From contig NZ_LN831024.1 of the NCBI RefSeq assembly GCF_001457615.1, forward strand, positions 4,320,001-4,352,000: a DNA stretch of 32,000 nucleotides, in the 5' to 3' direction. Positions 3,565 to 32,000 of this stretch are shown one piece after another. The position numbers and the translations under genes are program-made. Source of the stretch: Pseudomonas aeruginosa (GTDB taxonomy: Bacteria; Pseudomonadota; Gammaproteobacteria; Pseudomonadales; Pseudomonadaceae). Every line of letters starts with the position of its first letter. Position 1 is the stretch's first letter. The notes beneath the pieces are model-generated. The model was not told the DNA's origin. It made no database searches and saw only the letters and a program-made list of their open reading frames with translations.

Positions 3565-3653
3565 CTTGTCCTCTTCGCGATGTTTTCCGTCCTGACCGCA
3601 GCATTCTGCCAGGCGCAGGCGGCCTAGGCTTGGCTCTTTTTTCCGGAGCCATC

Positions 3654-7040: not shown

Positions 7041-7484
7041 TCAGTCGTCCTGGCGGCGGGTACGCTGGGCGAGTTCGTCGAGCTGTTTCTGCTCGCGCTT
7101 GTCCTCGGCCTGGCGCGCCTCTTCCAGGTAGCGCTCGACCAGCTTGCGCAGCCCTTCCAGGCGGGCGTATCTCTCCCGCCAGTTGAGCCGCGCCTTGTCC
7201 ACCGCCTCGCGGTGCCAGGTCACGCTGTTGGCCTGCTGGGCGACGGCGGTCTCCAGTTGCGAGAGGAAGCGCTGGTAGTTCATCAGCCACTGGCCACTGA
7301 CGCCCTTCTGGCCCTGGCTGATCCATTGCTGCTGGTAGTCGTTGCGGTAGCGTTCCAGCTCCGCCAGCTTCTGCTGTGCCGCGAGCAATTGCTGCTGGCA
7401 CCTGCCCAGCTGGGTCGCGGCATCCCGCTCGGCCTTGCTGGCCATGTCCACCACCGGCGCCAGCCGCGCCGCGCGCTTCTCCAT
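7041..7484 (-). CDS. fliJ: Flagellar export apparatus protein FliJ, 147 aa
   Basis: Coiled-coil protein rich in Q, R and E. It is the last gene after fliI, and its size and position match fliJ. Confidence 0.9.
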   Translation of the reverse strand: MEKRAARLAPVVDMASKAERDAATQLGRCQQQLLAAQQKLAELERYRNDYQQQWISQGQKGVSGQWLMNYQRFLSQLETAVAQQANSVTWHREAVDKARLNWRERYARLEGLRKLVERYLEEARQAEDKREQKQLDELAQRTRRQDD

Positions 7485-7497
7485 GCCTCAGGGCGCC

Positions 7498-8853
7498 TCA
7501 GGCCTGCCCGCCGGCGAGCAGGCTCGCCAGCCGCGCACGGCTTTCCGCCAGGCTTTCGCTTTCGTCGAGGCCCTGGCGCAGGAACTGGCGCATGACCGGG
7601 AAGCGCGCGATGGCCAGGTCGGTCTCGGGATCGCCGCCGGCCACGTAGGCACCGACGCTGATCAGGTCGCGACTCTGCTGGTAGCGCGACCAGAGCTGCT
7701 TGAAGCGCTGGGCGTCGCGCAGGTGCTCGGCCTCGACCACCTGCGGCATCACCCGGCTGATCGAAGCTTCGATATCGATGGCCGGATAGTGGCCTTCCTC
7801 GGCCAGCCGCCGGGACAATACGAAGTGCCCGTCGAGCACGCCGCGAGCGGCGTCGGCGATCGGGTCCTGCTGGTCGTCGCCCTCGGAGAGCACGGTGTAG
7901 AACGCGGTGATCGAGCCGCCACCGGCTTCGGCATTGCCGGCGCGTTCCACCAGCTTCGGCAGCTTGGCGAACACCGATGGCGGATACCCCTTGGTCGCCG
8001 GCGGCTCGCCGATGGCCAGGGCGATCTCGCGCTGGGCCTGGGCGTAGCGGGTCAGCGAGTCCATCAGCAGCAATACGTTCTTGCCCTTGTCGCGGAAGTA
8101 CTCGGCGATCCGCGTGCAGTATTGCGCGGCGCGCAGGCGCATCAGCGGCGCGTCATCGGCCGGCGAGGCGACCACCACGGAGCGCTTGAGGCCTTCCTCG
8201 CCGAGGATCTCGTCGATGAACTCCTTCACCTCGCGGCCCCGCTCGCCGATCAGACCGACGACGATGATGTCGGCCCTGGTGAAGCGGGTCATCATCCCCA
8301 GCAGCACCGACTTGCCCACCCCGGTACCGGCGAACAGGCCGAGGCGCTGGCCGCGGCCGACCGTGAGCAGGCCATTGATCGAGCGGATGCCGACGTCGAG
8401 AGGTTCGCTGATCGGGTGGCGCTTGAGCGGGTTGATCGTCGGGCCGTCCATCGGCACCCAGTCTTCGGCGCGCATCCCGCCCTTGCCGTCGAGGGCGCGG
8501 CCGGCGCCGTCGAGCACCCGGCCGAGCATCGACATGCCCATCGGCAGGCGCCCGGTGTCCGGCAGCGGCACGACCCGCGCGCCAGGCGCGATGCCGGCGA
8601 GGCTGCCGACCGGCATCAGGTACACCTTGCTACCGGAAAAGCCCATCACTTCGGCCTCCACCTGCACCGGGTGGTAGCCGCTTTCGTTGATCACGTTGCA
8701 GCGGCTGCCGACCGCAGCCTGCAAGCCTTCGGCTTCGAGGGTCAGGCCGACCATGCGCAGCAGGCGGCCCTCGACCACCGGCTGCGTCGGCAGCGAGACA
8801 GCCTCGGTGTAGCCCTCCAGGCGCCTGGCGAAACTGGTTCGCTCAAGGCGCAT
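7498..8853 (-). CDS. fliI: Flagellum-specific type III export ATPase FliI, 451 aa
   Basis: Walker A GTGVGKS and Walker [10 protein letters not shown] are present, within an F1/T3SS-ATPase-like core. Confidence 0.97.
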
Positions 8854-9649
8854 CGACGTCTCCGGGGGCGTCGAGGTCGATCCGGATGTCGCTGGCCAGC
8901 GGATGGGTCGCCTGTTCGCGCTGTTGCTCGAACAGTTGCTTCACTGCCTGCGCCAGGCGCGTCTCGATGGTCGCGTCGATGCGACTGTGTTCGGTCTCGA
9001 TGCGGCAGCCGCCGGGCAGCAACGAATCGTCCTCGAGAATCCGCCAGCTCTCTTCGTGGCGCTCGCGCAGCGCCTTGACCCGCTCGAAGTCCTGCGGGTT
9101 GACATGGATACGGATGTTCGCCGCGCCCATCGGCAGCAGCTTGAGAGCCTCGCGCAGGACCTGGCGGACATGGCTGGAGTCCATGTGCAGTTCGCGCTGG
9201 ATCACCTGGCGGGCAACGTGGTTGACCAGGTTGACCATGCCCTGCTCGATCAGGGCGTCCTGCTCGGCGATGGGTTCCAGAAGCTGCGTCATCAGACGCT
9301 CGAGACTTTGCAGACGCTCCTTCAGCGCCTCCTCGGCTTCCTGCCGCGCCTTCAACTGGCCGGCGTGGAAACCGTCGCGCTCGCCGGTGGCGAAGCCTTC
9401 GTTGTAAGCGTCCTGGCGGATCGCCTCGATTTCCTCCAGCGTCGGCGGCTTGACGGTCTCCAGCTCGACCTCTTCCACCGCCGGCGGCGCCGGCGCGGGT
9501 TCGGCGACCGCGGGCACCTGCGGCGCGGCAACGGCCGGCTCGTCGCGCGGCTCGTCGAAGCTCGGCAACGACCAGAGGCCGAAGGCCGCCACGTCCTTGC
9601 CGCGGATCAGTTCGCTGGGATTGTCTTTGTCCTTGTCGTGGGGGACCAC
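8843..9649 (-). CDS. fliH: Flagellar assembly protein FliH (FliI regulator), 268 aa
   Basis: GTG start lies 1 nt after the fliG stop, and the 3' end overlaps fliI by 11 nt. It has an acidic, coiled N-terminal half and a FliH-type C-terminal domain, and sits between fliG and fliI. Confidence 0.9.
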
Positions 9650-9650
9650 C

Positions 9651-10667
9651 TCAGATCATCTCCTCGCCACCCTTGCCGCCCAGCACGATATCGCCGGACT
9701 CGGCCATGCGCCGGGCAATGGTGAGGATTTCCTTCTGCGCACCTTCCACTTCGCTGACCCGTACCGGCCCCTTGGCCTCCAGGTCGTCGCGCAGCAGCTC
9801 GGCGGCACGCTTGGACATGTTCTTGAAGACCTTCTCGCGGATCGCCTCGTCGGAGCCCTTGAGCGCCAGCACCAGTACGTCCGAGGAGACTTCCCGGAGC
9901 AGCGCCTGGATGCCACGGTCGTCGACGTCGGCGAGGTTGTCGAAGACGAACATCAGGTCCTCGATCTGTCCGGACAGGTCTTCGTCGACCTCGCGGATCG
10001 AATCCATCAGCTGGCCTTCGATGGAGCTGTCGAGGTAGTTCATGATGTCCGCCGCGCGCTTGACCCCGCCCATGGTGGTGCGGGTGGCGTTGGAATTGCC
10101 GGCGAACTGCTTCTCCAGGATCAGGTTGAGTTCCTTCAGCGCCGAGGGCTGCACGGTGTTCAGCGAGGAGACGCGCAGGACGATATCCAGGCGCACCTTG
10201 TGGTCGAAATGGCTGAGCACCTCGGCGGCCTGGTCGGGATCGAGGTAGGCGACCACGATGGCCTGGATCTGCGGGTGTTCGTAACGGATCACGTCGGCCA
10301 CGGCACGCGGCTCCATCCACTTCAGGCTGTCCAGGCCGCTGGTGCTGCCGCCGAGGAGGATGCGGTCGATCAGGTTGTTGGCCTTGTCCTCGCCGAGGGC
10401 CTGGGTGAGCATCTTGCGGATGTAGCCGTCGGCACCGACGCCGAGGCTGGTCTGGTCGCCGACCACTTCGACGAACTCGCCCATCACCTGCTCGACCTGT
10501 TCGCGGTGCACGTTGCGCATCGACGCCATGGCCACGCCGACCCGCTGCACCTCTTTCGGCCCCATGTGCCGCAGCACCTGCGCCGCGTCGGTCTCGCCGA
10601 GCGACAGGAGCAGGATGGCGGCCTTGTCGACCTTGGTCAGTTTGGCGGCGAGACGATTCTCACTCAT
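9651..10667 (-). CDS. fliG: Flagellar motor switch/rotor protein FliG, 338 aa
   Basis: Conserved FliG strings include KAAILLLSLGE, IRYEHPQIQAIV, the C-terminal MFVFDNL, and ALKG...KVFKNMSKRAAELLRDDLE. Confidence 0.97.
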   Translation of the reverse strand: MSENRLAAKLTKVDKAAILLLSLGETDAAQVLRHMGPKEVQRVGVAMASMRNVHREQVEQVMGEFVEVVGDQTSLGVGADGYIRKMLTQALGEDKANNLIDRILLGGSTSGLDSLKWMEPRAVADVIRYEHPQIQAIVVAYLDPDQAAEVLSHFDHKVRLDIVLRVSSLNTVQPSALKELNLILEKQFAGNSNATRTTMGGVKRAADIMNYLDSSIEGQLMDSIREVDEDLSGQIEDLMFVFDNLADVDDRGIQALLREVSSDVLVLALKGSDEAIREKVFKNMSKRAAELLRDDLEAKGPVRVSEVEGAQKEILTIARRMAESGDIVLGGKGGEEMI

Positions 10668-13067: not shown

Positions 13068-14489
<1,422 letters not shown>

Positions 14490-15814: not shown

Positions 15815-17287
<1,473 letters not shown>

Positions 17288-17391
17288 TTTGATCAGCTGC
17301 CTTGCATCGAATGGGTCTCGCTCGACCCGAAAGAGGGCTGGGACTAATGCCTATTTCTAATAAGCAGCCAGCATTTGGCCACTAGTTAAGT

Positions 17392-17414
17392 CAAATGTGA
17401 ACGATTAGTCAATT
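17392..17414 (-). promoter_or_regulatory. Vfr (CRP-family) operator in the fleQ promoter
   Basis: The minus strand reads AATTGACTAATCGTTCACATTTG. This matches my recollection of the published Vfr site that represses the sigma70 fleQ promoter. It is CRP-like (TGA-N8-TCACA) and lies in the AT-rich region about 105-125 nt upstream of the fleQ ATG. Confidence 0.7.
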
Positions 17415-17454
17415 TTATGGCGTGTTTTTTTTGCTGTTTCCGACAGGGAGAGGC

Positions 17455-17504
17455 AATAAAAAACCCCTACAGACCGCATGGAAAGCAGTACTGGCAGGGG
17501 TTTT
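17455..17504 (-). terminator. Probable terminator of the fliD-fliS-fliS'-fleP transcript
   Basis: The minus-strand RNA reads AAAACCCCU...(27-nt loop)...AGGGGUUUUUUAUU. A 9-bp stem is followed by a U-run, and it starts about 65 nt after the fleP stop. The loop is unusually long. Confidence 0.55.
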
Positions 17505-17568
17505 GGGGGATATGTAAATTTTTCCGAAAAGCCTTGCGCCAAAGTAACGGCACAAAGCCATGAAAAAC

Positions 17569-17862
17569 TTATCCGAACATCTGGTAGACCTTGGCGCCTT
17601 GCTTCGACTGGTTCAGCTGGATCAGATCGGTGGCCAGCTTGCGCTGCTCGCCCTGGCAGACATCGATCAGCTCGCGATACAGCGCCAGCAGCTCTTCCAT
17701 CCGCGCCCGCAAGGTGGCTTCGTCCTGTACATCGAGCATCGCCTCGTCGACGGCCTGGCGGCAACGCTGGTCGAGTTCACCGATGGCCTCCCAGTTCTGG
17801 CTGGCCAGGGCAACGCGCAGGGCGCTACCGGTTTCTTCAAGGATCTGTACAGCTGCACTCAT
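17569..17862 (-). CDS. fleP: Small helical FliT-like flagellar protein (FleP, orf96 of the PAK locus as I recall), 97 aa
   Basis: ATG 17862 with GAGGGA 7 nt upstream is preferred over ATG 17904, which would overlap fliS' by 17 nt. The protein is all-helical, rich in Q, E and L, and is the last gene of the fliD operon. Confidence 0.7.
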   Translation of the reverse strand: MSAAVQILEETGSALRVALASQNWEAIGELDQRCRQAVDEAMLDVQDEATLRARMEELLALYRELIDVCQGEQRKLATDLIQLNQSKQGAKVYQMFG

Positions 17863-17887
17863 TGCTTGGTCCCTCTGGGGATGCCTC

Positions 17888-18268
17888 TCAGGGGGCAATC
17901 GCATCCCAACCGGATTTGATGTTGCGCAACAGCTCGGAAACTTCCTCGAGCTTGCCCGCGTCGTTCTTCAAGTTGGCTTCCGTCAGTCGCATCGACATGT
18001 AGGCGTAAAGGCGGTCGAGGTTGGCTGCCAGCTCGCCGCCCGCCTCGAAGTCGAGCCCTTCGCGCAGGCCACCGACGATGGCGATGGCCTTGCCGATCAG
18101 CTCGCCCTTCAGCGCCACTTCGCCGCGCTCCAGGGCTCCGCGGGCCTGCGCCATCCGGGTCAGGCCGCCTTCCATCAGCATCTGGATCAGGCGATGCGGG
18201 CTGGCATCGATAGCCTGAGCCTGGGTACTGACATTCTGGTATTGCCGCATGGCTGCCATTGCGTTCAT
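17888..18268 (-). CDS. fliS: Second FliS-family flagellin export chaperone (fliS' / orf126), 126 aa
   Basis: The FliS pattern is present: YQ...A.PHRLIQMLMEGGLTRMAQA, KGELIGKAIAIVGGLREGLDFEAGGELAANLDRLYAYM and W..I. Confidence 0.85.
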   Translation of the reverse strand: MNAMAAMRQYQNVSTQAQAIDASPHRLIQMLMEGGLTRMAQARGALERGEVALKGELIGKAIAIVGGLREGLDFEAGGELAANLDRLYAYMSMRLTEANLKNDAGKLEEVSELLRNIKSGWDAIAP

Positions 18269-18326: not shown

Positions 18327-20161
<1,835 letters not shown>

Positions 20162-20238: not shown

Positions 20239-20625
20239 TCAGGCTTCCGCCTTGAACAGCAGGCTGCGCGCTTCGTCCAGTCGCTCTGCCAGGCGCAGGG
20301 CCTCTTCGGAAGGGATTTGCCGGATGACTTCTCCGGAAGTCGAATCGGTCACCTTGACCACTACCCGCCCCGTGGAGTCGTCCAGGCTGAAACTCAGATC
20401 ACGACGGATGCTCTGGGTGAACTTCTCGATGGAGGAAACCGCCTCCTCGACCGCAGCGCGTTGCTCCTTGTCGCCCATCCTGACGTCGCCCGTCCGTTGC
20501 GCGCTTGCGCTGGCGGCCGCCTCGCCGGCCTGGCCGGCCGGGCGTGCGCCATCGGAAGAAGACGCCGAGCCGAACAGCCGGATTACCGGAGCAGCCGTCG
20601 AATTGTTGACATTGCTGACGTCCAT
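20239..20625 (-). CDS. flaG: Flagellar protein FlaG, 128 aa
   Basis: The FlaG-family C-terminus is LSFSLDDSTGRVVVKVTDSTSGEVIRQIPSEEALRLAERL. ATG follows GAGAGG. It sits between fliC and fliD. Confidence 0.9.
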   Translation of the reverse strand: MDVSNVNNSTAAPVIRLFGSASSSDGARPAGQAGEAAASASAQRTGDVRMGDKEQRAAVEEAVSSIEKFTQSIRRDLSFSLDDSTGRVVVKVTDSTSGEVIRQIPSEEALRLAERLDEARSLLFKAEA

Positions 20626-20647
20626 CGTCGCTACCTCTCAATGAGAT

Positions 20648-20679
20648 ACGAGGGGAAGCGCGCCAGCGCTCCCCCTCGT
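20648..20679 (-). terminator. Strong stem-loop downstream of fliC (probable terminator or attenuator before flaG)
   Basis: A 14-bp stem, ACGAGGGGGAGCGC-UGGC-GCGCUUCCCCUCGU on the minus-strand RNA, contains one G-U pair. It starts 26 nt after the fliC stop. The trailing sequence AUCUCAUU is only weakly U-rich. Confidence 0.5.
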
Positions 20680-20704
20680 GACTTCACCTTGACCTCGCCG
20701 AAGC

Positions 20705-21889
20705 TTAGCGCAGCAGGCTCAGAACCGACTGCGGCAGCTGGTTGGCCTGGGCCAGGATCGCGGTGCCGGCTTGTTGCAGCACTTGGTTCTTGGTCAGGTT
20801 GGCGGTTTCGGCTGCGAAGTCGGTGTCTTCGATCCGGCCGCGAGCAGCCGATACGTTCTCACCGATGTTCTTCAGGTTGTTGATGGTGTTGTCGAAGCGG
20901 TTCTGCACCGCACCGAGGTCGGCACGCTGGGCGTCGATCTGCTTGATCGCCTCGTCGATCACCAGCACGGCGGACTGAGCGCCCTTCGCGGTGGAGATGT
21001 CGATCTTGGCGACGGTGTCGTTGGTCTTGGCGAAAGCGGTAGCGGAAGGGGCTACGCCAGCCGCGGTGCCTACGCCGGTGCTGCCGGTGTCAGCGATGAC
21101 AACGCCGGAAACCGCGCTAGTGATCGCACCGGAGCCATCCTTGCCAGCTTTGGAAACATAGCTGATGGTATCGCCGTCGCTGAAGGCACCGATGCCGACG
21201 TTGGCGTCGTTGACCGCTGCGGCGATCTTGGCAGCCGCCTGCTCGGCGGTTTCGTTGCCCTTCATGTCGACCTTGACGTTCACGGCGCTGCCGCCGGTGA
21301 TGCCGATCGCGATGTCGACGGTGCCCGAAGCGGTTGCAGCAGTGACCGCGCCGCCGCCGTCAGCCTTGAAGTAGGTGCCGTTCAGCGACTCTGCGCTCAT
21401 CTCGTCGATGCCGACGCTGATGATTTCGTTGGCGGCCGAACCCACCTGGAAGCTGGCGACGCCGAAGGAACCGTCGAGCAGCTTGCGGCCACCGAAGGTG
21501 GTGGTGTTGCTGATACGATCCAGTTCTTTCTGCAGTTGCTTCACTTCGCCGTTCAGAGCGGTACGCTCGGAGTCGCTGTTGGAGCCGTTGGCCGACTGCA
21601 GGGACAGGTCACGCATACGCTGCAGGATGTTGGTCGACTGCTGCAGGGCGCCTTCAGCGGTCTGCGCCAGGGAGATACCGTCGTTGGCGTTCTTGGTAGC
21701 CACGTTCAGGCCGTTGACCTGGCTGGTCAGACGGTTGGCGATCTGCAGGCCGGCGGCGTCGTCCTTGGCGCTGTTGATGCGCGAACCGGTGGACAGACGC
21801 TGCAGCGAAGTGTTCAGCGACGCGGAAGAGTTGTTCAGGTTCCGCTGAGTGTTCAGCGAAGCGATGTTGGTGTTGACGGTCAAGGCCAT
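20705..21889 (-). CDS. fliC: a-type flagellin FliC, 394 aa
   Basis: ATG 21889 is preceded by GGAGGG; the MEGIK extension in the track is rejected. The conserved termini are [18 protein letters not shown]... and ...[14 protein letters not shown]. The short variable centre and total length of 394 aa match a-type (PAK-like) flagellin rather than the longer b-type flagellin (about 488 aa in PAO1, as I recall). Confidence 0.97.
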
Positions 21890-21980
21890 CTTGATGCCCT
21901 CCAAGGACGATATGTTTGCCTGAGCTTGCGACCTCGGGTGGGCATCGCCCAGGCACCCCTAAAGTTCGCATTCGTGATCT

Positions 21981-22007
21981 TTATCGGCGCTTCCCTGAGG
22001 AGCTTTA
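21981..22007 (-). promoter_or_regulatory. sigma28 (FliA) promoter of fliC
   Basis: The minus strand reads TAAAG-N14-GCCGATAA, an exact match to the flagellar sigma28 consensus. It lies about 90-115 nt upstream of the fliC ATG, with a T9/A9 run immediately upstream. Confidence 0.88.
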
Positions 22008-22113
22008 GGTTTTTTTTTGACCATCCTCGTTTTTCATGCATCGGCCCCGTCGGAGGGGTTCGCGCAAGGCCTCCCGAGCGCTGCGGACAGCGACGGAAAG
22101 CCCCGCCGGCCGC

Positions 22114-25100
22114 TCAGTCCGGCATCCAGGCACGATACCAGGCGCGCAAACGCTCGCCGTCGAGCATCCAATCCGCCAGCACCCGTTCGCGCAGGTTATC
22201 CCCTGCCCTGGCTGCGGCATCCAGGTCGCGGGTATGCATGCGGATCGCCTCCACCCAGTCGCGGAAACGGTTCTTCACCCGCGTCACCGGCAGATCGTCC
22301 TGGTAGCAGCGCACGTCGCTGCAGACCACCGGGAAACCGCAGGCGCCGTATTCCAGCAGGCGCAGATTGCTCTTGCACTCGTTGAACAGGTTCTGCTCCA
22401 CCGGCGCCAGCGCCAGGTCGAGATCGAGAGCCGCCAATGCCCGCGGATAGCGTTCGATAGGCACCCCCGCATGCACTTCCCTGACGAAGGGACGGATGGA
22501 CGGCGGGCACATGCCGAAGAACACCCAGTCGACTTCGTCGGCCAGTTCCCGGACCACATCGGCGATCAGTTCCAGATCGCCGGTATGGCTCGAGCCGCCC
22601 GCCCAACCGACACGTGGCCGCTCGCCGCGCCGCCGCTGCGCCCGCAGCCCCTGCCACCACCCCACCGGCAGGCGGTTCTCGATCACCCGGATATCCGGGT
22701 GGAGACCGGCGAAGGCCTCTGCCAGGGCCGGCGTCGACACCACGAAGCGGTCGACGTAACCCAGCCCGCGACGCAGCGTGCGCAAAATGTCCTTCGGCAG
22801 GTGCTGGCGATGGGCGCTCTTGAGGGGCACGTTGGGCAGATAGTCGTCCAGCTCGTAGACCTTGAAGGCCCGCGAGAACGCCTGCATCCGCCGCATGGCC
22901 TCGAGACGCTCCTCGCCGACCTGGCGCTGCAGCACCAGTACGTCCGGGTCGTAGCGCTCCAGATCGGCCACGTGCATCAGGCCGATCGACAGCGCGCCAT
23001 CGATGGATGCCGACTCGCGCAACGCGCTGAACGGCTGGATCACCCGGTAATGGCCGCAGCCGAACAGGTCGGCGGGGTGCGCCAGGACAGTGGGCAAGGG
23101 CCGCCACCCCTGCAACGGGCGCCAGGCCAGCTGCGGGTCGGCCAGCTTGAAACCGCCTTCGGCCTGCAACGAAAAGCCCGGGTTATAGGCGGGATCGCGT
23201 GCCAACAACGGTAGCCAGCGCGCGTACAGCGCATCTTCTTCCTCGACGCTCGCCGCCGTCGTGGCAGGCGCATCGAGCAACAGCCGCGCACGCGGCGTCC
23301 ATACGTTCAGGTAGCCCGCCTGGACCGCCCGCAGGCAGATGTCGACATCGTCCCAGCGCGTCAGCGCCTCGTCGAAACCGCCCAATTCGAGAAACAACTC
23401 GCGGCGCATCAACAGGCATTCGCCAGCCACCGCCGAGTAGTTCTGGTCCACCTGCAGGCGCTGCAGGTAACCGGCGTCCTCGTGCGAACGCCCTTCGAAG
23501 GCCCGCCCGGCCGGTCCGCATAAGCCGAGCAGCCAGCCGGCGTGGCAGACCCGTCCGTCCGCCGCCAGGAGCTTGGCGCCTACCGCGCCGACTTCCGGAC
23601 GCTGGCCATGGTTGAGCAACTGCTGCAGCCAGTCCTTGTCGAGGATGCCGCTGCCGGCATCGAGCCAGAGCAGGAATTCGCCACGCACCCGGGACGCCGC
23701 CAGGTTGCGCAGAGCCCCACGGGATAACTGCCCATCGCCTCGCAGCACCCGCACCTGCTCGACACCCATGCCTTCGACGGCGAGCAGCCATTCGCGAACG
23801 TCGGCCGCTTCGCCACCCTGTTCCAGCAGAAGGATCTCGTAGTTGGGATAGGCGGTATTCTCCAGCACGGTTTCTACGCAACGCTGGAGCTGCGCCAGGC
23901 GCTCCCCGGCCAGCACCAGGATGCTGACCGGCGGTTGCCCGGCGTGGCCGTAGTCCAGCTCGTAGCGCCCCGGCAGCCGGCTTCCGACTGTCGCCTGCGC
24001 GTAGCCACGGGCACGCAGGTGGCCTTCGATCGCCGCACGCTCGGCGGTGCTGTCCTGCAGGCGCAGCGCTGGGCCAGACAGCAGTGGCTCGCTGATGTGT
24101 CCGATACAGCCCAGGCCCCGCTGCTCGACGAGACGCAACTGGTAGGCCAGCTCGAAAGCCTCGCCGGCGGTCTCGTCGAATCCGCCCGTGGCAAGCAGCG
24201 GCTCGCGGCGGAACAACCAGTGCCGGGACAGGCCGGCGGGGAAACTGAGCAGAAGGTCGAGATTCAGGTCCGGGCGCAACGCCGCGCCCAGCTCGCCGTC
24301 ATCCAGGCGCATGAGTTCGTCGGCGTACACCGCCTGGCAGCTCTCCGGTGCCGCCAGCAGGTCCAGCGCCGCCACCAGCAGGCCGCTGACAGTGAATTCG
24401 ACGCCCGCTTCGACCAGGAGCAACCAGTCGGTATCAAGCCGGGCAAGCGCCTGGTTGATCGTCGGTATCGGCCCCGCGGCAGGATCGAAGAGCATCGCTC
24501 CGTTCCGCGGACTCGCGCCCAGCGGCGCGAACAGGTGGCTCTCGACATGTGGATACGAATTGACGTGCTCCAGGCTCTGCAGGGTGCGCTCCACGGCCTC
24601 GGTATCGCCGTGGGTGTCGAGCACCAGCACCGCGAAGCGCGGCCCACCGCCCTGCTCCTGCAGGAATCGATCGATCAGCGCCTTCTGCACCGCATCCGGC
24701 CGCCGCGCCTCCAGCCAGGTCGACAGCGTGACGCTACCGAAGCCCGCCGCCCGCCTCAGCGCGGCGAGCAGGTTGACCGGCTTGAAGACACGGGCGTCCA
24801 GGCGGGTGATCGGTGCCACCCGGACGAAACGGTTGTCGCCGGCCTGGCGATACCAACCCAGTTCGCGGATAGCCAGGCGGAAGTCGGCATGGCCCTGCTC
24901 GCCGATACCGGGCTGGTCGCGCCCGATCTGGCTGAACTGCTGGCGGGAGACGCGGAAACGGGTCAGCGGCCGCGACAGGAACGCCAGGTCGCCACGCTGT
25001 AGCAACTGCGCACACATGGCCAGGTCGCCGATCCAGTCGATGGCCCGGCCGTTGAGCATCATCAGGCGCTCGCAGATCTGCAGCAGCGCATCGCGCCGGG

Positions 25101-25620
25101 CCATCAGGCAACTGGGTTCGCCGATGAAGTTGATGGTGTGGTCGGCGAGGAACGAGACCAGCTCGCGACCGTCGATCAGGACGTCGCCGGCGAACGGGAA
25201 GCAGGTCGCCAGGATGTCCGGCAGCGGCTGCCCTTCCTCGTCGATACGCAACCGCCGCGACGAGGCCAGGACCACGTTCGGCTCGCGCTCCATCGCTCCC
25301 ACCAACGCCTCGACGCATTCGGGAAGCAACACGTCGTCGTCGTGGAGAAACTTGACGTACTCGCCCTCCGCCAGGCGAATGCCTTTCGCCGTGCTGCCCA
25401 GCTCGCCGAGGCGCGTCTCGTTGCGGAAGTAGCGGATCGGGAATGCCGCGGAGGCGCGCTTCTGCTCGACCAGCGTGGCGATCCGCTCGTCGCTGCTGTC
25501 GTCGCAGATGATCAGCTCCAGGGCCGGATAGGTCTGCCCGAGCACGCTGTCGAGGGCGTCCTCGAAGTACTCCAGCTTGTAGGTCGGCATGACGATGCTG
25601 ACACGAACGTTCGCGCTCAT
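22114..25620 (-). CDS. fgtA: Multi-domain flagellin glycosyltransferase (OrfN / FgtA / Fgt1 family), 1168 aa
   Basis: The first GT-A (GT2) domain reads VSIVMPTYKLEYFEDALDSVLGQTYPALELIICDDSSDE...LHDDD. A second, degenerate GT-A-like module lies around aa 330-520 (FAVLVLDTHGD...). A third GT2-like module lies around aa 590-800 (VSILVLAGER...WLDAGSGI...GGFDE). The C-terminal region of about 300 aa is GT-B-like (RVGWAGGSSHTGDLE...ECKSNLRLLEYGACGFPVVCSD). It lies directly upstream of fliC. Confidence 0.9.
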   Translation of the reverse strand: MSANVRVSIVMPTYKLEYFEDALDSVLGQTYPALELIICDDSSDERIATLVEQKRASAAFPIRYFRNETRLGELGSTAKGIRLAEGEYVKFLHDDDVLLPECVEALVGAMEREPNVVLASSRRLRIDEEGQPLPDILATCFPFAGDVLIDGRELVSFLADHTINFIGEPSCLMARRDALLQICERLMMLNGRAIDWIGDLAMCAQLLQRGDLAFLSRPLTRFRVSRQQFSQIGRDQPGIGEQGHADFRLAIRELGWYRQAGDNRFVRVAPITRLDARVFKPVNLLAALRRAAGFGSVTLSTWLEARRPDAVQKALIDRFLQEQGGGPRFAVLVLDTHGDTEAVERTLQSLEHVNSYPHVESHLFAPLGASPRNGAMLFDPAAGPIPTINQALARLDTDWLLLVEAGVEFTVSGLLVAALDLLAAPESCQAVYADELMRLDDGELGAALRPDLNLDLLLSFPAGLSRHWLFRREPLLATGGFDETAGEAFELAYQLRLVEQRGLGCIGHISEPLLSGPALRLQDSTAERAAIEGHLRARGYAQATVGSRLPGRYELDYGHAGQPPVSILVLAGERLAQLQRCVETVLENTAYPNYEILLLEQGGEAADVREWLLAVEGMGVEQVRVLRGDGQLSRGALRNLAASRVRGEFLLWLDAGSGILDKDWLQQLLNHGQRPEVGAVGAKLLAADGRVCHAGWLLGLCGPAGRAFEGRSHEDAGYLQRLQVDQNYSAVAGECLLMRRELFLELGGFDEALTRWDDVDICLRAVQAGYLNVWTPRARLLLDAPATTAASVEEEDALYARWLPLLARDPAYNPGFSLQAEGGFKLADPQLAWRPLQGWRPLPTVLAHPADLFGCGHYRVIQPFSALRESASIDGALSIGLMHVADLERYDPDVLVLQRQVGEERLEAMRRMQAFSRAFKVYELDDYLPNVPLKSAHRQHLPKDILRTLRRGLGYVDRFVVSTPALAEAFAGLHPDIRVIENRLPVGWWQGLRAQRRRGERPRVGWAGGSSHTGDLELIADVVRELADEVDWVFFGMCPPSIRPFVREVHAGVPIERYPRALAALDLDLALAPVEQNLFNECKSNLRLLEYGACGFPVVCSDVRCYQDDLPVTRVKNRFRDWVEAIRMHTRDLDAAARAGDNLRERVLADWMLDGERLRAWYRAWMPD

Positions 25621-25740
25621 TGAGCCATTCCTGAGTAATTGGTGCAGCGCATGGTGATCGGAAGGGCCGGGCCATGGCCCTTCGTGTCGCCGCTCCCGGT
25701 CTCGACTCCCCGCGGCGGAGCATCTGCTCCGACGAGCGCG

Positions 25741-25940
25741 TCAGCGCCCTTCACGAAGAGCATCGGGCCAGTCGACATAGAGGATCGTGTCGTAGAAATA
25801 CAGCGAGTAATGGCGCAGGCGCAGCCGGGCTCCCGCAGCGATCCCGTCGATCGCGGCGACGATGTCCAGCAGGTCCTGCACATGGTGGTAACAGGTGATG
25901 GCCATGCGCGGCCGGCACTCGTCGATCAGCCGCGCGGCCC
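25741..25940 (-). pseudogene. Out-of-frame C-terminal remainder (66 codons) of the FkbM methyltransferase
   Basis: Shifting frame at the G5 run (plus-strand C5, 25938-25942) gives AARLIDECRPRMAITCYHHVQDLLDIVAAIDGIAAGARLRLRHYSLYFYDTILYVDWPDALREGR, ending at TGA 25741-25743. This is the expected continuation of an FkbM domain after DVEGxExxVLxG. Confidence 0.7.
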
Positions 25941-26906
25941 CCGCAGAACCCGTGCCTCATGGCCTTCCACATCCATTTTCAGCAAGGTCATGACATCGAG
26001 GACATCGTCGAGCCGCACGCACGGCACCTGCACGGTGCCGTCTATCTCGACCCTGCTTCCCATGGTGCCGTGGGCTGCGAATGCGAGATGGCCGCCGGTA
26101 TCGGACACCGCCTGGTTATGCAGATGGAGACCGACACTTCCAGCAAGCGACGCATGCATGAGCCGGTAATTCGCCGGATCAGGCTCGAAGGCATGGATCG
26201 AAGCATATTCATGACGAGCCGCCAGCATGAACTTCTTCACCGTATCGCCATCGTAGGCACCGATATCCACGTAATGCTCGTCGCTTCGCAAGACGATCGG
26301 ATGCTCGGGGCCCCGGTACAGGGAAAAGTATTCCTGCTCTCCCGGACACAACACGTCCAGCAACGCAGCGCGGTTGCCGTCCAAACGCAGGCGCATGATG
26401 GCTTCCAGGGTCTTCCGGCTTCGCTCGTCGGCCAGGCGCTCGCGCAGCGAGACGAACTCGGCGTGATGCTGCATCGCCAATTCGCGAGTCAGCGCGCCGG
26501 TCTGGTAGACCAAAGGAATATCCAGCAGGTAGAGAAGCTCGGGCAGATCGAGGGTGATGCATTGCGCAGTCTTCGCCAGGTGATCCAGCGTCAGCCAGGT
26601 AGGCAGCGAATAGGCACAATTCACCGCGGGTTTCCCTGCGTGGCATGGTTCCTTCAACTGGGCGGTAGGAATCACCTGGTCGAAACCATCGGGAACGCTA
26701 TTGCTGGCGAAAAGCACATCGTCCACAGCAATCAGGCGAACCTCAGGCAGACGCTGTGACAAACCGGCAACCACCTGTGAGCGGAACACCCCTCCAAGAT
26801 AGGAACTAGGCACCAGCACCAATAGATATCCGCTCCGTTCGCATCGCGAAAGGAAGTCCGCCTGCGTCATATCGTTTCCCGCCATCATCGACAGCTCCCC
26901 GCTCAT
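25926..26906 (-). CDS. FkbM-family SAM-dependent methyltransferase, prematurely terminated by a frameshift (326 aa as written)
   Basis: FkbM motifs are present: HYVDIGAYDGDT, HAFEPDPANY, NQAVSD and LLKMDVEGHEARVLRG. The ORF then stops 4 codons later. An N-terminal extension of about 190 aa has unknown function. Its ATG overlaps the stop of the upstream gene as ATGA. Confidence 0.8.
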   Translation of the reverse strand: MSGELSMMAGNDMTQADFLSRCERSGYLLVLVPSSYLGGVFRSQVVAGLSQRLPEVRLIAVDDVLFASNSVPDGFDQVIPTAQLKEPCHAGKPAVNCAYSLPTWLTLDHLAKTAQCITLDLPELLYLLDIPLVYQTGALTRELAMQHHAEFVSLRERLADERSRKTLEAIMRLRLDGNRAALLDVLCPGEQEYFSLYRGPEHPIVLRSDEHYVDIGAYDGDTVKKFMLAARHEYASIHAFEPDPANYRLMHASLAGSVGLHLHNQAVSDTGGHLAFAAHGTMGSRVEIDGTVQVPCVRLDDVLDVMTLLKMDVEGHEARVLRGPRG

Positions 26907-27517
26907 AGGATGCGTGCCCCATCGGGCATGAGTTCATCGTAAAAGGAGTAATTAGGCAGTTCCCGGGGAAGCCTGCCCGGCAACAACCATTCGCAGTGTC
27001 GCCCCACCCGGGTGTCGGCGAGCGCGACGCTGCCCGCACCCAGCGTGCTGCCCTGGCCGATCTCCACTCGCCGTCCCAACTGCACGCCAGCGAGCAGCGT
27101 GCTACAGGTTCCGACCCGGCAGTCCTCCTCCACCAGGACCTGCAGCTCCAGCCAACTGCCAGTGCCGATGCGGGCAGGACCAGCGAGCACGCAACCGGCG
27201 CCGACGAACACGTTGCCCAGCAGTCGCACGCCTTCGCCGACGATGGCCTGAGGCGAGACGATATCGAATAGCCGGTAGCCCGCCAGGCGGATATCCGCGA
27301 TGAGCTTGTGGCGGGCGTAGTTCACCGCCCGCTCGTCCAGCGCCACGAATACTTCGCTTTCCGCAGCGGGGTAGCGTTCGAGCAGAGGCGCAATATCGAA
27401 GTTGTGTCGATCCGCAGCATTCAGCTCCAGGACCCGGTGTTCCAGTCCCCGTTCCCGCGCGGTACTGTCCGCCCGTTCGAGCGCGCGCCCTTCCCCGACG
27501 ATGATCGCCTGCTTCAT
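26903..27517 (-). CDS. Left-handed beta-helix (hexapeptide) acyl/acetyltransferase, NeuD/PglD-like, 204 aa
   Basis: ATG 27517 follows GGAGAGGG and overlaps the Rieske gene stop as ATGA. The N-terminal Rossmann-like start is MKQAIIVGEG. Hexapeptide repeats include VGEGVRLLGNVFVGAGCVLAGPARIGTGSWL and VEIGQGSTLGAGSV. Confidence 0.8.
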   Translation of the reverse strand: MKQAIIVGEGRALERADSTARERGLEHRVLELNAADRHNFDIAPLLERYPAAESEVFVALDERAVNYARHKLIADIRLAGYRLFDIVSPQAIVGEGVRLLGNVFVGAGCVLAGPARIGTGSWLELQVLVEEDCRVGTCSTLLAGVQLGRRVEIGQGSTLGAGSVALADTRVGRHCEWLLPGRLPRELPNYSFYDELMPDGARIL

Positions 27518-28644
27518 GCCCTCTCCCCCAGTACCTGCGCGCGATACCACAGGTGCTGGCGCACCAGCTGCACCTCGTAGTCGCCGTGCATGAACGGCGG
27601 CGAATGTGCGCCCAGCCCCTCCTGGAGGCGTTCCAGGACCAGGGTGTCCTCGCCGATCACGTTACGCTCGCCGCGAATCAGGGTGCTCAGCAAAGCGCTG
27701 AAATCGGTCTTCGGATCCTTGCGCCGGGCAGTCATCATCCACAGGTGGTAATCGGTCTCGCCGGGTGCCACCGGATCGTACTGCTGGAGCAGGAAGTGCT
27801 CGCCACGGACGCTGCAGAAGTTCACGTTCGGGTAGATGAACCAGTTGTAGTAGGCGTGCTCGTCGCCGTAGCCCTCGCAGAGGTCGGAGAACCAGCTCTT
27901 GTAGGGCTGGATCGGCGCCTTGGTGGGGAAGCTCAGCGAACGCAGCTCCGGCGTTTCGCCTTCCTGCAGCAGGCGCAGCACCTCGGATGGCACCGCAGCC
28001 TCGCGTGCCAGACCGCGCACCGGGGCGGTCATCACCGGGAGGAAGGTCTTCGGATGGACGAAAGGAACATGGTTGTAGTCCTTCACGTTCTCCATGTTCA
28101 GCTTCCAGTTGTAGCGCACCTTGTGGCAGCTGTAGATCAGCCGCGTATCCAGGTGCGAGGAGACCTCCCGCAAGGTTTCCAGGAATCCATCGTCGAACTG
28201 CTCGCGCAGCGGCAGCGGGTCGTCCGCCAGGTTGACGAACAGCAGTTGCCCCACCTCTTCCAGGTGCAGCTTGCGCAAGCCGATCCGCGCCCGCTCCTCG
28301 GCGCTGAACTGGTACAGGCTGGAGTTCGGAATGCCCTGTAGCTGCCCCTCGGCGCCGAACGACCAGGCATGGTACGGGCAGACCAGCGGTCGCTGGCCGG
28401 TGCATTCGGTCTGGATCGCCGACAGACGATGCGGACACTGGTTGAGAAAGGCCCGAATGCCGGACTCGGTACGCTGCACCACGACCGGCACGCCGGCGAT
28501 CTTGCGGGTGAAGAACTGGTTGCGCTCGCGCACCATCGAACTGAAGCCGACGAAGATCCAGAGCCTGCCGAACAGCCTTTCGCGCTCCAGCGCGAGCGTC
28601 TGCGGCTCGGTGTAGTGCGCTGCGTCCAGCGCATGGCGAGTCAT
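27514..28644 (-). CDS. Rieske [2Fe-2S] non-heme-iron oxygenase (alpha-subunit-like), 376 aa
   Basis: The Rieske motif is CPHRLSAIQTECTGQRPLVCPYHAW (C-x-H-x16-C-x2-H). The mononuclear-iron motif is NVKDYNHVPFVHP (D-x2-H-x4-H). ATG 28644 is chosen; in-frame GTGs at 28650, 28656 and 28665 are possible alternatives. The 135-aa N-terminal extension of the 511-aa track ORF overlaps the upstream gene and is rejected. Confidence 0.88.
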   Translation of the reverse strand: MTRHALDAAHYTEPQTLALERERLFGRLWIFVGFSSMVRERNQFFTRKIAGVPVVVQRTESGIRAFLNQCPHRLSAIQTECTGQRPLVCPYHAWSFGAEGQLQGIPNSSLYQFSAEERARIGLRKLHLEEVGQLLFVNLADDPLPLREQFDDGFLETLREVSSHLDTRLIYSCHKVRYNWKLNMENVKDYNHVPFVHPKTFLPVMTAPVRGLAREAAVPSEVLRLLQEGETPELRSLSFPTKAPIQPYKSWFSDLCEGYGDEHAYYNWFIYPNVNFCSVRGEHFLLQQYDPVAPGETDYHLWMMTARRKDPKTDFSALLSTLIRGERNVIGEDTLVLERLQEGLGAHSPPFMHGDYEVQLVRQHLWYRAQVLGERA

Positions 28645-28661
28645 GTCCACATCCACAACCT

Positions 28662-29294
28662 TCACTTGCTGAAAATAACCCGGGCCGGATTGCCGACCAC
28701 GGTCTGTCCGGCCGCCACGTCCTTGAACACCACCGCGCCCATGCCCACCACGGCGTCTTCGCCGATACTGACGTCGCGGGCGATCATCGCCCCGGAGTTG
28801 ATCACCGCACGATCGCCCACCTTCACGTAGCCGGCCAGCAGGCAGCGCGGGCCGATGTGTACATAGTCGCCGATGACCACGTCGTGGCCGAGCATGGTTT
28901 GCTGGTCGATGAAACCGTAGGCGCCGATACGGCAGTCCACGCCGCTGCTCACGTCGTAGCCGAAGAAGGTCGGGCCGTAGCTGGTCCGCACGCCAAGGGT
29001 GCAGCGGGTGCGGATAGCGACGAACTCGGCGCCCTTCGCCAGCAGGCATGCGACCTGCTTCTGGCGACTGAGCGGATCGCCGACCGCGGCGACGAACAGT
29101 TGGTCAGGCTCCGCGACGAAGCTCTCCGGATACCCGAGCCACGGGTAGTAGAGCGACTCCGCGACCGCGTCGGGGCCGCGCTCGTCGAGAAACCCGCCGA
29201 TCACCCAGTCGATGCCGTGACCGTAGTCGACCTGCAGCTGGGCCAGCACCTGACGCCCCAACCCACCGGCGCCGAGGATGATGATCCTCTTCAT
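28662..29294 (-). CDS. PglD/NeuD-family hexapeptide N-acyltransferase (sugar aminotransferase-product acylase, VioB-like), 210 aa
   Basis: The N-terminal Rossmann-like start is MKRIIILGAGGLGRQV. The C-terminal LbH repeats are IGAYGFIDQQTMLGHDVVIGDYVHIGPRCLLAGYVKVGDRAVINSGAMIARDVSIGEDAVVGMGAVV...VVGNPAR. Confidence 0.85.
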   Translation of the reverse strand: MKRIIILGAGGLGRQVLAQLQVDYGHGIDWVIGGFLDERGPDAVAESLYYPWLGYPESFVAEPDQLFVAAVGDPLSRQKQVACLLAKGAEFVAIRTRCTLGVRTSYGPTFFGYDVSSGVDCRIGAYGFIDQQTMLGHDVVIGDYVHIGPRCLLAGYVKVGDRAVINSGAMIARDVSIGEDAVVGMGAVVFKDVAAGQTVVGNPARVIFSK

Positions 29295-29304
29295 TGCATC
29301 GTCC

Positions 29305-30072
29305 TCAACTGATGGTCAGGCCGCCGTCCATCACCAGGGTCGTGCCGGTCACCCAGCGGCTGGCATCGGAAAGCATGAAGATAGCGGCGTTGGCGATATC
29401 CTCGGGCTTGCCGAAGCCCATCGGGTGGTTGCTGCGTTGACCGTCCATCGAACCGACCGTCTGGGTGGCTGCATCCAGAAGCGGTGTTTCCACCAGTGAT
29501 GGAGACAGGCAGTTAACCCGGATGTTGCGCTTCACCACTTCCATGGCCAGGCAGCGGGACATGGCGATCAGAGCGGCCTTGGTTCCCGAGTATGCCCCCA
29601 CTCCGGCAACCCCGATGTGGGCGGCGATGGAAGCGATGAACAGGATCGAACCGCCGGGCGCTACCAGGTTGCGCTTGAGCAACGCCTGGGTAAGCAGCAT
29701 CGGCGAGTCGACATTGATCGACTGGACTTCATGCAAGTGCGCTTCGGTCATCATCCGCACTGGACACAGACGGGAAATACCGGCGCTATGCACCAGTCCA
29801 TGGATTTCGCTGTCGACAGCCGCTACCACCGCAGCGCGCTCCTCGGCTACCCGAAGATCGGCCTGGACAGCACGGTGCGGCAGCTCCGAGATCGACTGCA
29901 AGGTTGTCAGGCATCCATCCAGGCGGGTCTGGTCACGTCCGGTAACGATCAATTCGGCGCCCATCCGCGCACAGCTCTGCGCGATGGCCAGGCCCAGGCC
30001 GGAACTGGCGCCGGTGACCAGGATGCGCCTGCCCGACAGGCTGAAGGGATTGAAGGAAGTCTCGTCGTTCAC
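29305..30072 (-). CDS. Short-chain dehydrogenase/reductase, 3-oxoacyl-ACP reductase (FabG)-like, 255 aa
   Basis: GTG start. The cofactor motif is VTGASSGLG (TGxxxGxG) and the catalytic motif is YSGTKAAL (YxxxK). IRVNCLSPS is also present. Confidence 0.9.
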   Translation of the reverse strand: MNDETSFNPFSLSGRRILVTGASSGLGLAIAQSCARMGAELIVTGRDQTRLDGCLTTLQSISELPHRAVQADLRVAEERAAVVAAVDSEIHGLVHSAGISRLCPVRMMTEAHLHEVQSINVDSPMLLTQALLKRNLVAPGGSILFIASIAAHIGVAGVGAYSGTKAALIAMSRCLAMEVVKRNIRVNCLSPSLVETPLLDAATQTVGSMDGQRSNHPMGFGKPEDIANAAIFMLSDASRWVTGTTLVMDGGLTIS

Positions 30073-30097
30073 TTGGCTGATTCCGCGTTCAAGGCAC

Positions 30098-31138
30098 TCA
30101 GGATTCGATCAGATCGGGGAACTTCGCCCCTTCGATATCCACCAGGCAGGTACCCCAGGACAGGCCGATACCGAAGCCGCAGAGCAACACGCGATTGCGG
30201 CCGGCCTCGAGTTCCCGGTTGATCCGCGCGGTCATGGTCACCGGCAGCGAGGCGCCGCTGGTGTTGCCGAAGTCGCGCAGGGTCGAAGGCACCTTCTCTA
30301 CCGGCAGGCCGAGCTTCTTGCGGATGGTCTCGTTGATCATCCGGTTGGCCTGGTGGAAAACGAAGTAGTCCACTTCGTCCTTGCTCGCACCGGCATAGTC
30401 GAGCAGCTTTTCCACCGCCGGCGGTACGCGCTGGGTGGAGAAGCTGAGTACGGCGGTGCCGTCGAGCTGCAGGTCGATGGCACGGTGCCAATGGTCGTTC
30501 TCGTCCTCGCGGAACGGCATCAGGTGCTGCACGCCGACCGGTTCGCGATGGCCGCCCACCGGCAGGATGATGGCCTTGTAGCCGCTGCCGTCGCTGTTCA
30601 GGTCGAAGTGCATCGGCGGCGCGCCTTCGCAGAACTCCAGCGCCGTCGCGGTGCCCGCGTCGGAGAAGATCGGATCGTTGACACTGGCGCCGCGGTCGCC
30701 GACCAGCACAAGGCCCTTCTTCACCCCGCCGGCGGCAATCAGCGAACCCAGCAGGTTGAGGGCGAACGGATAGGCCGAGCAACCCAGGTTGACGTCGAAG
30801 GCCACGGTGGAATGCGGCAGCCCCAGGCGGTCCTGGAGGATGATCGCGGTAGCCGGCGCCAGGTAGTCGGGAGACTGGGTCACGACGATCAGCGCATCGA
30901 CCTCCTCGCGCTTCCACTCCAGGCTTTCCAGCAGGCGCTCGGCGGCGTCGAAGGCCAGGTCGGAGAAGCACTGCCACTCCTGCGCCATGCGCCGCGTCTC
31001 GATGCCGATGTTGCGCACCAGGCGTTCGCGCTCGGCGCGCAACTGCGGCTTGCAGTCGGTCAGGTTGGAGATAACGCGCTTGGGGACGCAGGTCGCCATC
31101 CCGGCGAAACGGACGTTCTTCAGCGTGGAGGTGGCCAT
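30098..31138 (-). CDS. 3-oxoacyl-ACP synthase III (FabH/KAS III)-like, 346 aa
   Basis: The active-site Cys is in NLGCSAYPFAL, the His in FVFHQAN and the Asn in FGNTSGASLP. ATG lies 2 nt after the ACP stop. Confidence 0.92.
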   Translation of the reverse strand: MATSTLKNVRFAGMATCVPKRVISNLTDCKPQLRAERERLVRNIGIETRRMAQEWQCFSDLAFDAAERLLESLEWKREEVDALIVVTQSPDYLAPATAIILQDRLGLPHSTVAFDVNLGCSAYPFALNLLGSLIAAGGVKKGLVLVGDRGASVNDPIFSDAGTATALEFCEGAPPMHFDLNSDGSGYKAIILPVGGHREPVGVQHLMPFREDENDHWHRAIDLQLDGTAVLSFSTQRVPPAVEKLLDYAGASKDEVDYFVFHQANRMINETIRKKLGLPVEKVPSTLRDFGNTSGASLPVTMTARINRELEAGRNRVLLCGFGIGLSWGTCLVDIEGAKFPDLIES

Positions 31139-31140
31139 GG

Positions 31141-31365
31141 TCAGAGTCCAAGCATCTGGTAGAGGTCGCCCACCGTGCGAGCCTTGATCAGGTCTTCACC
31201 GGTGATGGTCTTGCCGTATTCCATGTCGAACATGACGATGACCCCGAGCGCGGCCAGCGAGTCCCATTCCGGCAGGTCTTCGAGCTGGGTGTCCATGCTG
31301 ACCTCGACGGGATTCTGGAAATCGGTGGCGGAAAGGAAGTCTTCGATGAATTTTGCTTGGCTCAT
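31141..31365 (-). CDS. Dedicated acyl carrier protein, 74 aa
   Basis: A small acidic protein with the phosphopantetheine-attachment motif EWDSLAALGV (DSL). Confidence 0.9.
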   Translation of the reverse strand: MSQAKFIEDFLSATDFQNPVEVSMDTQLEDLPEWDSLAALGVIVMFDMEYGKTITGEDLIKARTVGDLYQMLGL

Positions 31366-31419
31366 TTCTTGTCTACCTGAGTGAGGCGGTTGTTCATTCT
31401 GTTATCGGTCGCGACGGGC

Positions 31420-32000
31420 TCAACTTGATGCTCGCCGCCGCGGCATGGCGGCGGAAGCGATCAGGCCGGCGACGAACTCGACGTCTGCGGCGGCCAGCCC
31501 GGGATAGATCGGCAGGCACAGCACCCGCGAGGAAATCGACCGCGCCACCGGAAGATTGGCGGGCGCCGCCGAGGGCAGCGAATGGTACATGGGGAAGTCG
31601 CTGATGAGTGGGTAGAAGTAGCGCCGCACCAGCACATCCCTGTCGCGCAGGCGCTGGTACAGCTCGTCGCGCGAAAGCGGAAAATCGTCTTCCACCAGGA
31701 TCGGGAAATAGGCGTTGTTGGCGAAGGTCTGGGTACCAGGCCGGAGGCACTGGATGCCAGGGACGCCGGCCAGCAGGCGCCGATAGCGCTCGGCGATCTC
31801 CCTGCGCTGCTCCAGGGCCTGGTCGACGTGCTTGAGTTGCAGCAGCCCGAAGGCAGCGCCGACCTCGTTGAGCTTGCCGTTGATGCCGGGCATGACCACC
31901 GTGACCTCGTCGACGAAGCCGAAATTCTTAAGGTGGTTGAGGCGTTGCCGGGTGTTTTCGTCCGAGCAGATGATCGCACCGCCCTCGAAGGTGTTGAACA
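31420..32000 (-). CDS. DegT/DnrJ/EryC1-family PLP-dependent sugar aminotransferase (OrfA/VioA-like); C-terminal 193 codons only, continuing beyond the window
   Basis: The frame is open from 31998 down to TGA 31420-31422. It translates as FNTFEGGAIICSDENTRQRLNHLKNFGF...PGINGKLNEVGAAFGLLQL...ANNAYFPILV...RRYFYPL...LCLPIYPGL. This is typical of the family region just after the PLP-lysine. Confidence 0.9.
   Translation of the reverse strand, partial: FNTFEGGAIICSDENTRQRLNHLKNFGFVDEVTVVMPGINGKLNEVGAAFGLLQLKHVDQALEQRREIAERYRRLLAGVPGIQCLRPGTQTFANNAYFPILVEDDFPLSRDELYQRLRDRDVLVRRYFYPLISDFPMYHSLPSAAPANLPVARSISSRVLCLPIYPGLAAADVEFVAGLIASAAMPRRRASS

Follow-up and report, generated by a model that had tools for sequence, protein, structure and literature searches.

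The flagellin glycosylation locus of Pseudomonas aeruginosa is one of four recognised replacement islands, one form of which is called a-type long (a1), with reference to Arora 2004 and Schirm 2004 (PMC7685784). In strain PA103, nine open reading frames (ORFs) were described between flgL and fliC, with identities to strain PAK of 100% for orfA and orfB, 99% for orfC, orfE and orfF, 98% for orfG, 86% for orfD and 78% for orfH (PMC4020848, Table 1, Luo et al.); the counterpart of the ninth gene, at 98% identity, is PAK_04281 (PMC4020848), which corresponds to orfN as judged by locus-tag position. The RGP9 island of strain KRP1 comprises 10,732 bp and 9 genes (PMC7809047). Two sites of the flagellin FliC of strain JJ692 each bear one L-rhamnose (PMC3958885, review Table 1), the FliC of PAK carries up to 11 sugars (PMC3958885), and the flagellin glycan of PAK contains viosamine (PMC3927599). 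For Pseudomonas syringae, all seven vio genes were paired with PAK orfs by Yamamoto et al. 2011 at 12-52% identity, namely vioA at 52%, vioB at 19%, vioS at 35%, vioR at 28%, acp at 32%, vioM at 12% and vioT at 40% (PMC3927599). Here, a stretch of 32,000 nucleotides of P. aeruginosa (contig NZ_LN831024.1 of assembly GCF_001457615.1, positions 4,320,001 to 4,352,000; hereafter the window) was analysed with regard to the nine genes that lie directly upstream of its fliC gene.

JJ692 is reportedly the characterised carrier of a short island. The short island of Arora et al. 2004 reportedly lacks orfI-orfM, is polymorphic in orfD, orfE and orfH, and was seen alongside A1 as well as A2 flagellins. 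Schirm et al. 2004 are reported to have studied JJ692 and to have found that the proximal O-linked rhamnose depends on OrfN and that orfA of PAK is needed for the glycan beyond rhamnose.

The segment at positions 22114-32000 is very likely the complete short a-type flagellin glycosylation island of P. aeruginosa (RGP9), with orfA-orfH and orfN between flgL and fliC. It is filled by nine co-directional minus-strand genes with fliC directly downstream, and the intergenic gaps from orfB to orfH amount to only -4 to 25 bp. The initial annotation, made from the sequence alone, had described such a tightly packed set upstream of an a-type fliC and had assigned each gene to a family; Pfam searches confirmed the assignment of all nine, and the a-type was confirmed by flagellin clustering, the exact 394-aa FliC sequence, which belongs to the A-type flagellin cluster, recurring on at least 1000 contigs. 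It retains Thr189 and Ser260 (mature numbering), the two residues published as glycosylation sites. The window edge cuts off the first 186 codons of orfA and leaves the 3′ 192 codons. On the related contig L001, which is 99.5% identical over 12 kb, flgK and flgL are located immediately 5′ of a 378-aa orfA, so that nine genes over about 10.4 kb make up the whole island, in agreement with the earlier view that only nine genes and a short island are present. Gene content and order are the same as in P. aeruginosa contigs of 99.2-99.5% identity that have flgL upstream. The locus thus lies between flgL and an a-type fliC, orfA-orfH and orfN are present and orfI-orfM absent according to a tblastn matrix and to the block missing relative to a long-island contig (L003), and orfD and orfH are polymorphic relative to that contig (86% and 77%). 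Since the same divergence of orfD and orfH from the long island is measured here, the window shows the published PA103 pattern.

The initial annotation had further proposed a variant island whose glycan is not predictable from PAK. This is not upheld, as the gene content is identical to that of the published short island (PA103, PMC4020848; KRP1, PMC7809047), an outcome that the initial annotation had itself named as refuting its proposal. The island is already known and hence ordinary, and recognising it as this common short a-type form is no advance on its own. A solved glycan would likewise apply to this island type through JJ692, provided that this strain carries the short island.

For the comparison with the long form, the PAK-like contig L003 was used. 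A search with OrfH gave two common P. aeruginosa alleles, and the 77%-identical allele is located on this contig. Its island comprises 14 genes in 15.9 kb, with five additional genes between orfH and orfN, which encode a 424-aa protein without Pfam match, a CTP_transf_3 cytidylyltransferase, a 166-aa protein, a 367-aa methyltransferase and a 538-aa HMGL-like enzyme. The DNA alignment of the window with L003 consists of two blocks, orfA-orfH with 93.7% and orfN-fliC with 99.8% identity, and 5.57 kb with orfI-orfM (11124-16697 of L003) are missing from the window. At the protein level, orfA, orfB, orfC, orfE, orfF, orfG and orfN are 98-100% identical (orfN 99%), and a sliding-window comparison restricted the divergence to orfD and orfH. 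An alignment with the long island had been suggested in the initial annotation; the lower gene number noted there corresponds to the absence of orfI-orfM. The gene orfE, which is reportedly polymorphic, is 99% identical here. Between the short and long alleles, the ratio of nonsynonymous to synonymous substitution (dN/dS) amounts to 0.22 in orfD and 0.13 in orfH, at a synonymous divergence (dS) of 0.35 and 1.1, respectively. The divergent short-island alleles of orfD and orfH are thus under purifying selection and not decaying, which is a new but minor observation. The 164-bp junction from the end of orfH to codon 7 of orfN (25602-25766), which occupies the position of the long-island orfI-orfM block, has no homology to either long-island flank. 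The possibility that a deletion between repeats turned the long form into the short one was rejected because the junction is non-homologous and the orfH allele is divergent. In Pseudomonas paraeruginosa ATCC 9027 (L006), orfA, orfB, orfC and orfN are 92-99% identical to those of the window, and orfD-orfH are replaced by genes of 30-52% identity in a different order, with an FkbM-like gene before the Rieske gene; this looks like a third island variant.

The FkbM methyltransferase gene orfH is not intact, a lesion that was missed in the initial annotation. Intact orfH reads CGG GGG GCC, and the window reads CGG GGG CCG, i.e. a run of six G (G6) is shortened to five (G5) at 25938-25942. OrfH is thereby truncated to 326 aa, most strains having 388 aa, and loses the final quarter of its FkbM domain; of the 173 profile positions of PF05050, only 1-131 are matched. 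OrfH of the window shares 99% identity with the intact 388-aa allele (P0001/P0122), and the normal OrfH C-terminus can still be read out of frame at 25741-25925. In the window, orfH is a pseudogene, which is again new but minor. The G5 run is shared with L001 and L002, L004 has G6, and the slip from G6 to G5 was also found in L030-L033. It is present on two allelic backgrounds of orfH (S34/E55 and T34/G55) and occurs with both the 394-aa and the 387-aa flagellins (A1 and A2); frameshifted orfH was found on at least 24 contigs versus at least 1000 for the intact allele. As it is seen on two backgrounds, with both flagellins and on this number of contigs, the slip is real and recurrent, which points to the G tract as a homopolymer mutational hot spot. 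An 88-aa ORF at 25617-25883, which overlaps the out-of-frame tail of orfH and has no Pfam match, was taken as spurious. Other lesions were observed in further short islands: L004 has a frameshift in orfN near residue 814-821 (about 13726-13750), L032 has a split orfD (2834-3602) and a truncated orfN of 1111 aa (7287-10622), and L033 has a shortened orfA call (462-1487), each of the three reflecting either inactivation or assembly error.

The proposed biosynthetic route follows from the homologies of the encoded enzymes. Full-length OrfA (378 aa, taken from the 99.5%-identical copy on L001) has DesI as its best PDB match (2po3, 9e-65), which is a 4-aminotransferase acting on deoxythymidine diphosphate (dTDP)-4-keto-6-deoxyglucose; OrfA would therewith convert dTDP-4-keto-6-deoxyglucose to dTDP-viosamine. 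The acyl carrier protein (ACP) OrfB is 100% identical to its long-island copy and carries the phosphopantetheine motif DSL at residue 35 with Ser36. In OrfC, a beta-ketoacyl-ACP synthase III (KAS III) with FabH-type PDB matches down to 1.7e-63, the triad Cys119/His262/Asn291 is intact, and OrfD, a short-chain dehydrogenase/reductase (SDR) whose exact protein sequence recurs on at least 1000 contigs, carries both the TGxxxGxG and the Ser/Tyr/Lys motifs. Together, OrfB, OrfC and OrfD may form a short 3-hydroxyacyl-ACP, probably C4, from acetyl-CoA and malonyl-ACP; since neither a dehydratase nor an enoyl reductase is present, a 3-hydroxyacyl-ACP would be the natural product. OrfE, whose best PDB match is the viosamine N-acetyltransferase VioB (7txp, 3.7e-22), could then transfer the acyl group to the 4-amino group of dTDP-viosamine. 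Further tailoring of the product is predicted for OrfF, OrfG and OrfH. The Rieske oxygenase OrfF has intact CxH...CxxH and DxxHxxxxH motifs for the cluster and the iron ligands; it is of the alpha-subunit-only kind with no reductase partner within the island, and its nearest PDB structures are CntA, Stc2 and ring-hydroxylating alpha subunits (about 1e-21). A 511-aa version of this ORF (27514-29049) is an overcall, as the extra N-terminal part lies over orfE in a different frame and the calls on related contigs use the start for 376 aa. The PDB matches of OrfG, the second acyltransferase, are weak and of the PerB/LpxA type. The predicted methylation step of OrfH is lost in the present strain through the recurrent homopolymer frameshift. 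One member of the OrfN cluster is named 'flagellar glycosyl transferase, FgtA', and in this island family OrfN is reportedly required for the O-linkage of L-rhamnose to two Ser/Thr residues of the FliC domain exposed at the surface.

The 3-hydroxyacyl-ACP and viosamine logic put forward in the initial annotation is thus reasonable and fits the DesI and VioB neighbours and the intact motifs, but its comparison with the vio genes is not new, having been made for PAK (PMC3927599). Counterparts of vioA, acp, vioS, vioR, vioB and vioT with intact catalytic residues are present, as judged from Pfam, motifs, PDB neighbours and the published PAK pairing. A functional VioM-type O-methyltransferase was not found in the island, where the sole methyltransferase, OrfH, is of the FkbM family and frameshifted, and the published VioM pairing is at 12% identity. 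The gene labels for PAK conflict at this point: VioM is paired with orfG in Table 1 of PMC3927599, whereas orfG is an acetyltransferase and orfH the methyltransferase in Table 1 of PMC4020848; the gene order of the window fits the latter.

Table 1. Genes and sequence features of the flagellin glycosylation island and fliC in the window (LbH, left-handed beta-helix)
Feature	Position	Strand	Basis
orfA: DegT sugar 4-aminotransferase, VioA/DesI-like	31420..32000	-	PF01041, 2.8e-37
orfB: 74-aa ACP	31141..31365	-	PF00550; DSL site
orfC: KAS III, FabH-like condensing enzyme	30098..31138	-	PF08541 + PF08545
orfD: FabG-like SDR ketoreductase, short-island allele	29305..30072	-	PF13561, 4.5e-54
orfE: PglD_N + LbH N-acyltransferase, VioB-like	28662..29294	-	PF00132 + PF17836
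orfF: Rieske non-haem iron oxygenase, 376 aa	27514..28644	-	PF00355 + PF00848 (Rieske, Ring_hydroxyl_A)
orfG: second, divergent LbH acyltransferase, 204 aa	26903..27517	-	PF00132, 7e-12
orfH: FkbM methyltransferase, short-island allele, frameshifted	25741..26906 (ORF 25926-26906, 326 aa)	-	PF05050
orfH frameshift site, G5 run versus G6 in intact alleles	25938..25942	-	sequence comparison with L001, L002, L004
orfH-orfN junction, short-island-specific	25602..25766	-	blastn break points against L003
orfN (FgtA): 1168-aa glycosyltransferase, GT2 + GT2 + C-terminal GT1-like	22114..25620	-	Pfam
fliC: A1-type a-flagellin, 394 aa	20705..21889	-	exact match in A-type flagellin cluster

The same cassette was found inside the flagellar clusters of Xanthomonas, Stenotrophomonas, Pseudoxanthomonas and other Pseudomonas (L005/L020 and L009-L028 among the loci examined), in the order DegT, ACP, KAS III, SDR, LbH, Rieske, LbH, FkbM and then the giant glycosyltransferase. 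Identities amount to 62-86% for orfA, orfB and orfC, 49-64% for OrfN and 26-70% for the tailoring genes, ACP and KAS III being unusually conserved (76-86% at the amino acid level) across the Xanthomonas, Stenotrophomonas and Pseudoxanthomonas loci. This cross-genus occurrence is a new but minor observation. As the cassette recurs across genera and orfI-orfM are absent from most of these loci, the short architecture is old and modular, and the long form resembles a short one that gained a block and exchanged its alleles of orfD and orfH. Homologues of orfI (65-69%) and orfJ (68-72%) were found in Xanthomonas pisi, X. prunicola and X. bonasiae (L011, L012 and L018); what the short island lacks is thus in itself a mobile module, common to more than one genus. 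In L007, L008, L021, L022, L025 and L027, only the DegT gene is retained near the giant glycosyltransferase.

With regard to the product of the island, the one published glycan of JJ692 argues against a tailored sugar on the flagellin of short-island strains if JJ692 is one of them, and an N-acyl amino sugar there is then hypothetical. That the island adds a novel N-(3-hydroxybutyryl)-type amino sugar to flagellin, unpredictable from characterised strains, is accordingly considered unlikely. All pathway enzymes except OrfH keep intact motifs, with DesI and VioB as the nearest solved structures, purifying selection acts on the divergent alleles, the cassette and an OrfN homologue are conserved in the flagellar loci of other genera, and the three glycosyltransferase modules of OrfN exceed the requirement for a single rhamnose. 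These points are set against a gene content that is that of the published and very common short island and hence no variant, the frameshift in orfH, the lack of an assigned acyl group even in PAK (PMC3927599) and the rhamnose-only flagellin of JJ692. Another view, in which the short island arose recently from the long one by deletion, orfA-orfH being decaying leftovers and orfN alone in use, would account for the 5.57 kb missing relative to the long form, for the frameshifts of orfH on at least 24 contigs, for the additional lesions in orfN of L004 and in orfD and orfN of L032, and for the rhamnose of JJ692. However, the dS and dN/dS values of orfD and orfH indicate an old divergence under constraint, the 164-bp junction is not homologous to the long island, Xanthomonas has the short architecture without orfI-orfM, and the intact orfH allele is found on at least 1000 contigs; this scenario is very improbable. 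Equally improbable is the transfer of the orfA-orfH viosamine to another surface molecule, such as lipopolysaccharide (LPS) or another glycoprotein, in short-island strains. It would reconcile a rhamnose-only flagellin in JJ692, reportedly a carrier of orfA-orfH, with genes that are still under selection; yet in the loci examined from Pseudomonas, Xanthomonas and Stenotrophomonas the cassette always adjoins an OrfN-type glycosyltransferase within flagellar clusters, orfA of PAK is reportedly needed for the flagellin glycan, and viosamine is part of that glycan.

The identification as the documented short island with a rhamnose-bearing flagellin is preferred, and several points weigh against it. 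The long-island reference was a PAK-like contig and not PAK itself. The purifying selection on orfD and orfH argues for a function of the module, and the cassette is kept beside an OrfN homologue in Xanthomonas, both of which are awkward next to a rhamnose-only glycan. With the orfH frameshift, the selection and the cross-genus cassette make a rhamnose-only outcome slightly puzzling, without overturning it. A more speculative reading, which we regard as quite unlikely, is that JJ692 is unrepresentative and that short islands with intact orfA-orfH extend the rhamnose with a Rieske-oxidised N-acyl viosamine shared with Xanthomonas and Stenotrophomonas; the G6 tract of orfH would then be a recurrent switch that removes a methyl group from a surface antigen.

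The remaining genes of the window are P. aeruginosa flagellar genes (flaG, fliD, two fliS and fleQ onward), followed by unrelated genes. A scan for promoters and terminators at 20600-26000 gave none above the shuffled expectation, and a megablast search of plasmids with the segment gave only a b-type fliC match. The G+C content falls to 0.57 at 17000-18000 of the window (elsewhere about 0.66-0.70), over the fliT/fliS-fleQ intergenic area in an a-type-specific flagellar segment. The fliD gene is intact in the window (478 aa, 18725-20161), and 403-aa and 69-aa proteins are called for it in the near-identical L001 (16748-18184).

Flagellin glycans affect the virulence of P. aeruginosa, immune recognition and flagellin-based vaccines, and the island type is a standard strain-typing locus. 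A small puzzle remains in that eight biosynthetic genes are under selection and conserved across genera, yet a single rhamnose is reportedly the sole glycan published for such an island.

In comparison with the known systems, the viosamine island of P. syringae pv. tabaci shares the logic of a DegT 4-aminotransferase, ACP, KAS III, SDR, LbH N-acyltransferase, methyltransferase and giant glycosyltransferase of the OrfN family, and its product was shown experimentally to be N-(3-hydroxybutanoyl)-2-O-methyl-viosamine. It differs in having neither a Rieske oxygenase nor a second LbH protein, its methyltransferase VioM has no meaningful similarity (12% reported), and its rhamnoses come from the separate Fgt1/Fgt2, which are encoded in another island. 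The cassette of X. albilineans CFBP2523 (L005/L020) shows identities of 72% for orfA, 80% for orfB, 83% for orfC, 69% for orfF, 60% for orfG, 50% for orfH and 52% for orfN, with a glycosyltransferase of 1174 aa; it has two SDR genes and is located between fleQ and fliE and not beside fliC, and in other Xanthomonas species the tailoring genes are 26-50% identical. With the long island of PAK (GenBank AF332547, 14 genes orfA-orfN), the window shares orfA, orfB, orfC, orfE, orfF, orfG and orfN, at 98-100% identity to the PAK-like contig, and differs by the absence of orfI-orfM, by other orfD and orfH alleles and by an unrelated orfH-orfN junction. The closest system is the short island of PA103 and KRP1, with which the flgL-fliC location, nine genes in the same order over about 10.4-10.7 kb, the divergent orfD and orfH alleles (86% and 77-78% versus the long form) and an a-type FliC with both glycosylation sites are shared. 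The window copy is distinguished by the 1-bp deletion that shortens OrfH from 388 to 326 aa, and it pairs the short island with an A1-type flagellin of 394 aa, a combination that has reportedly been seen before.

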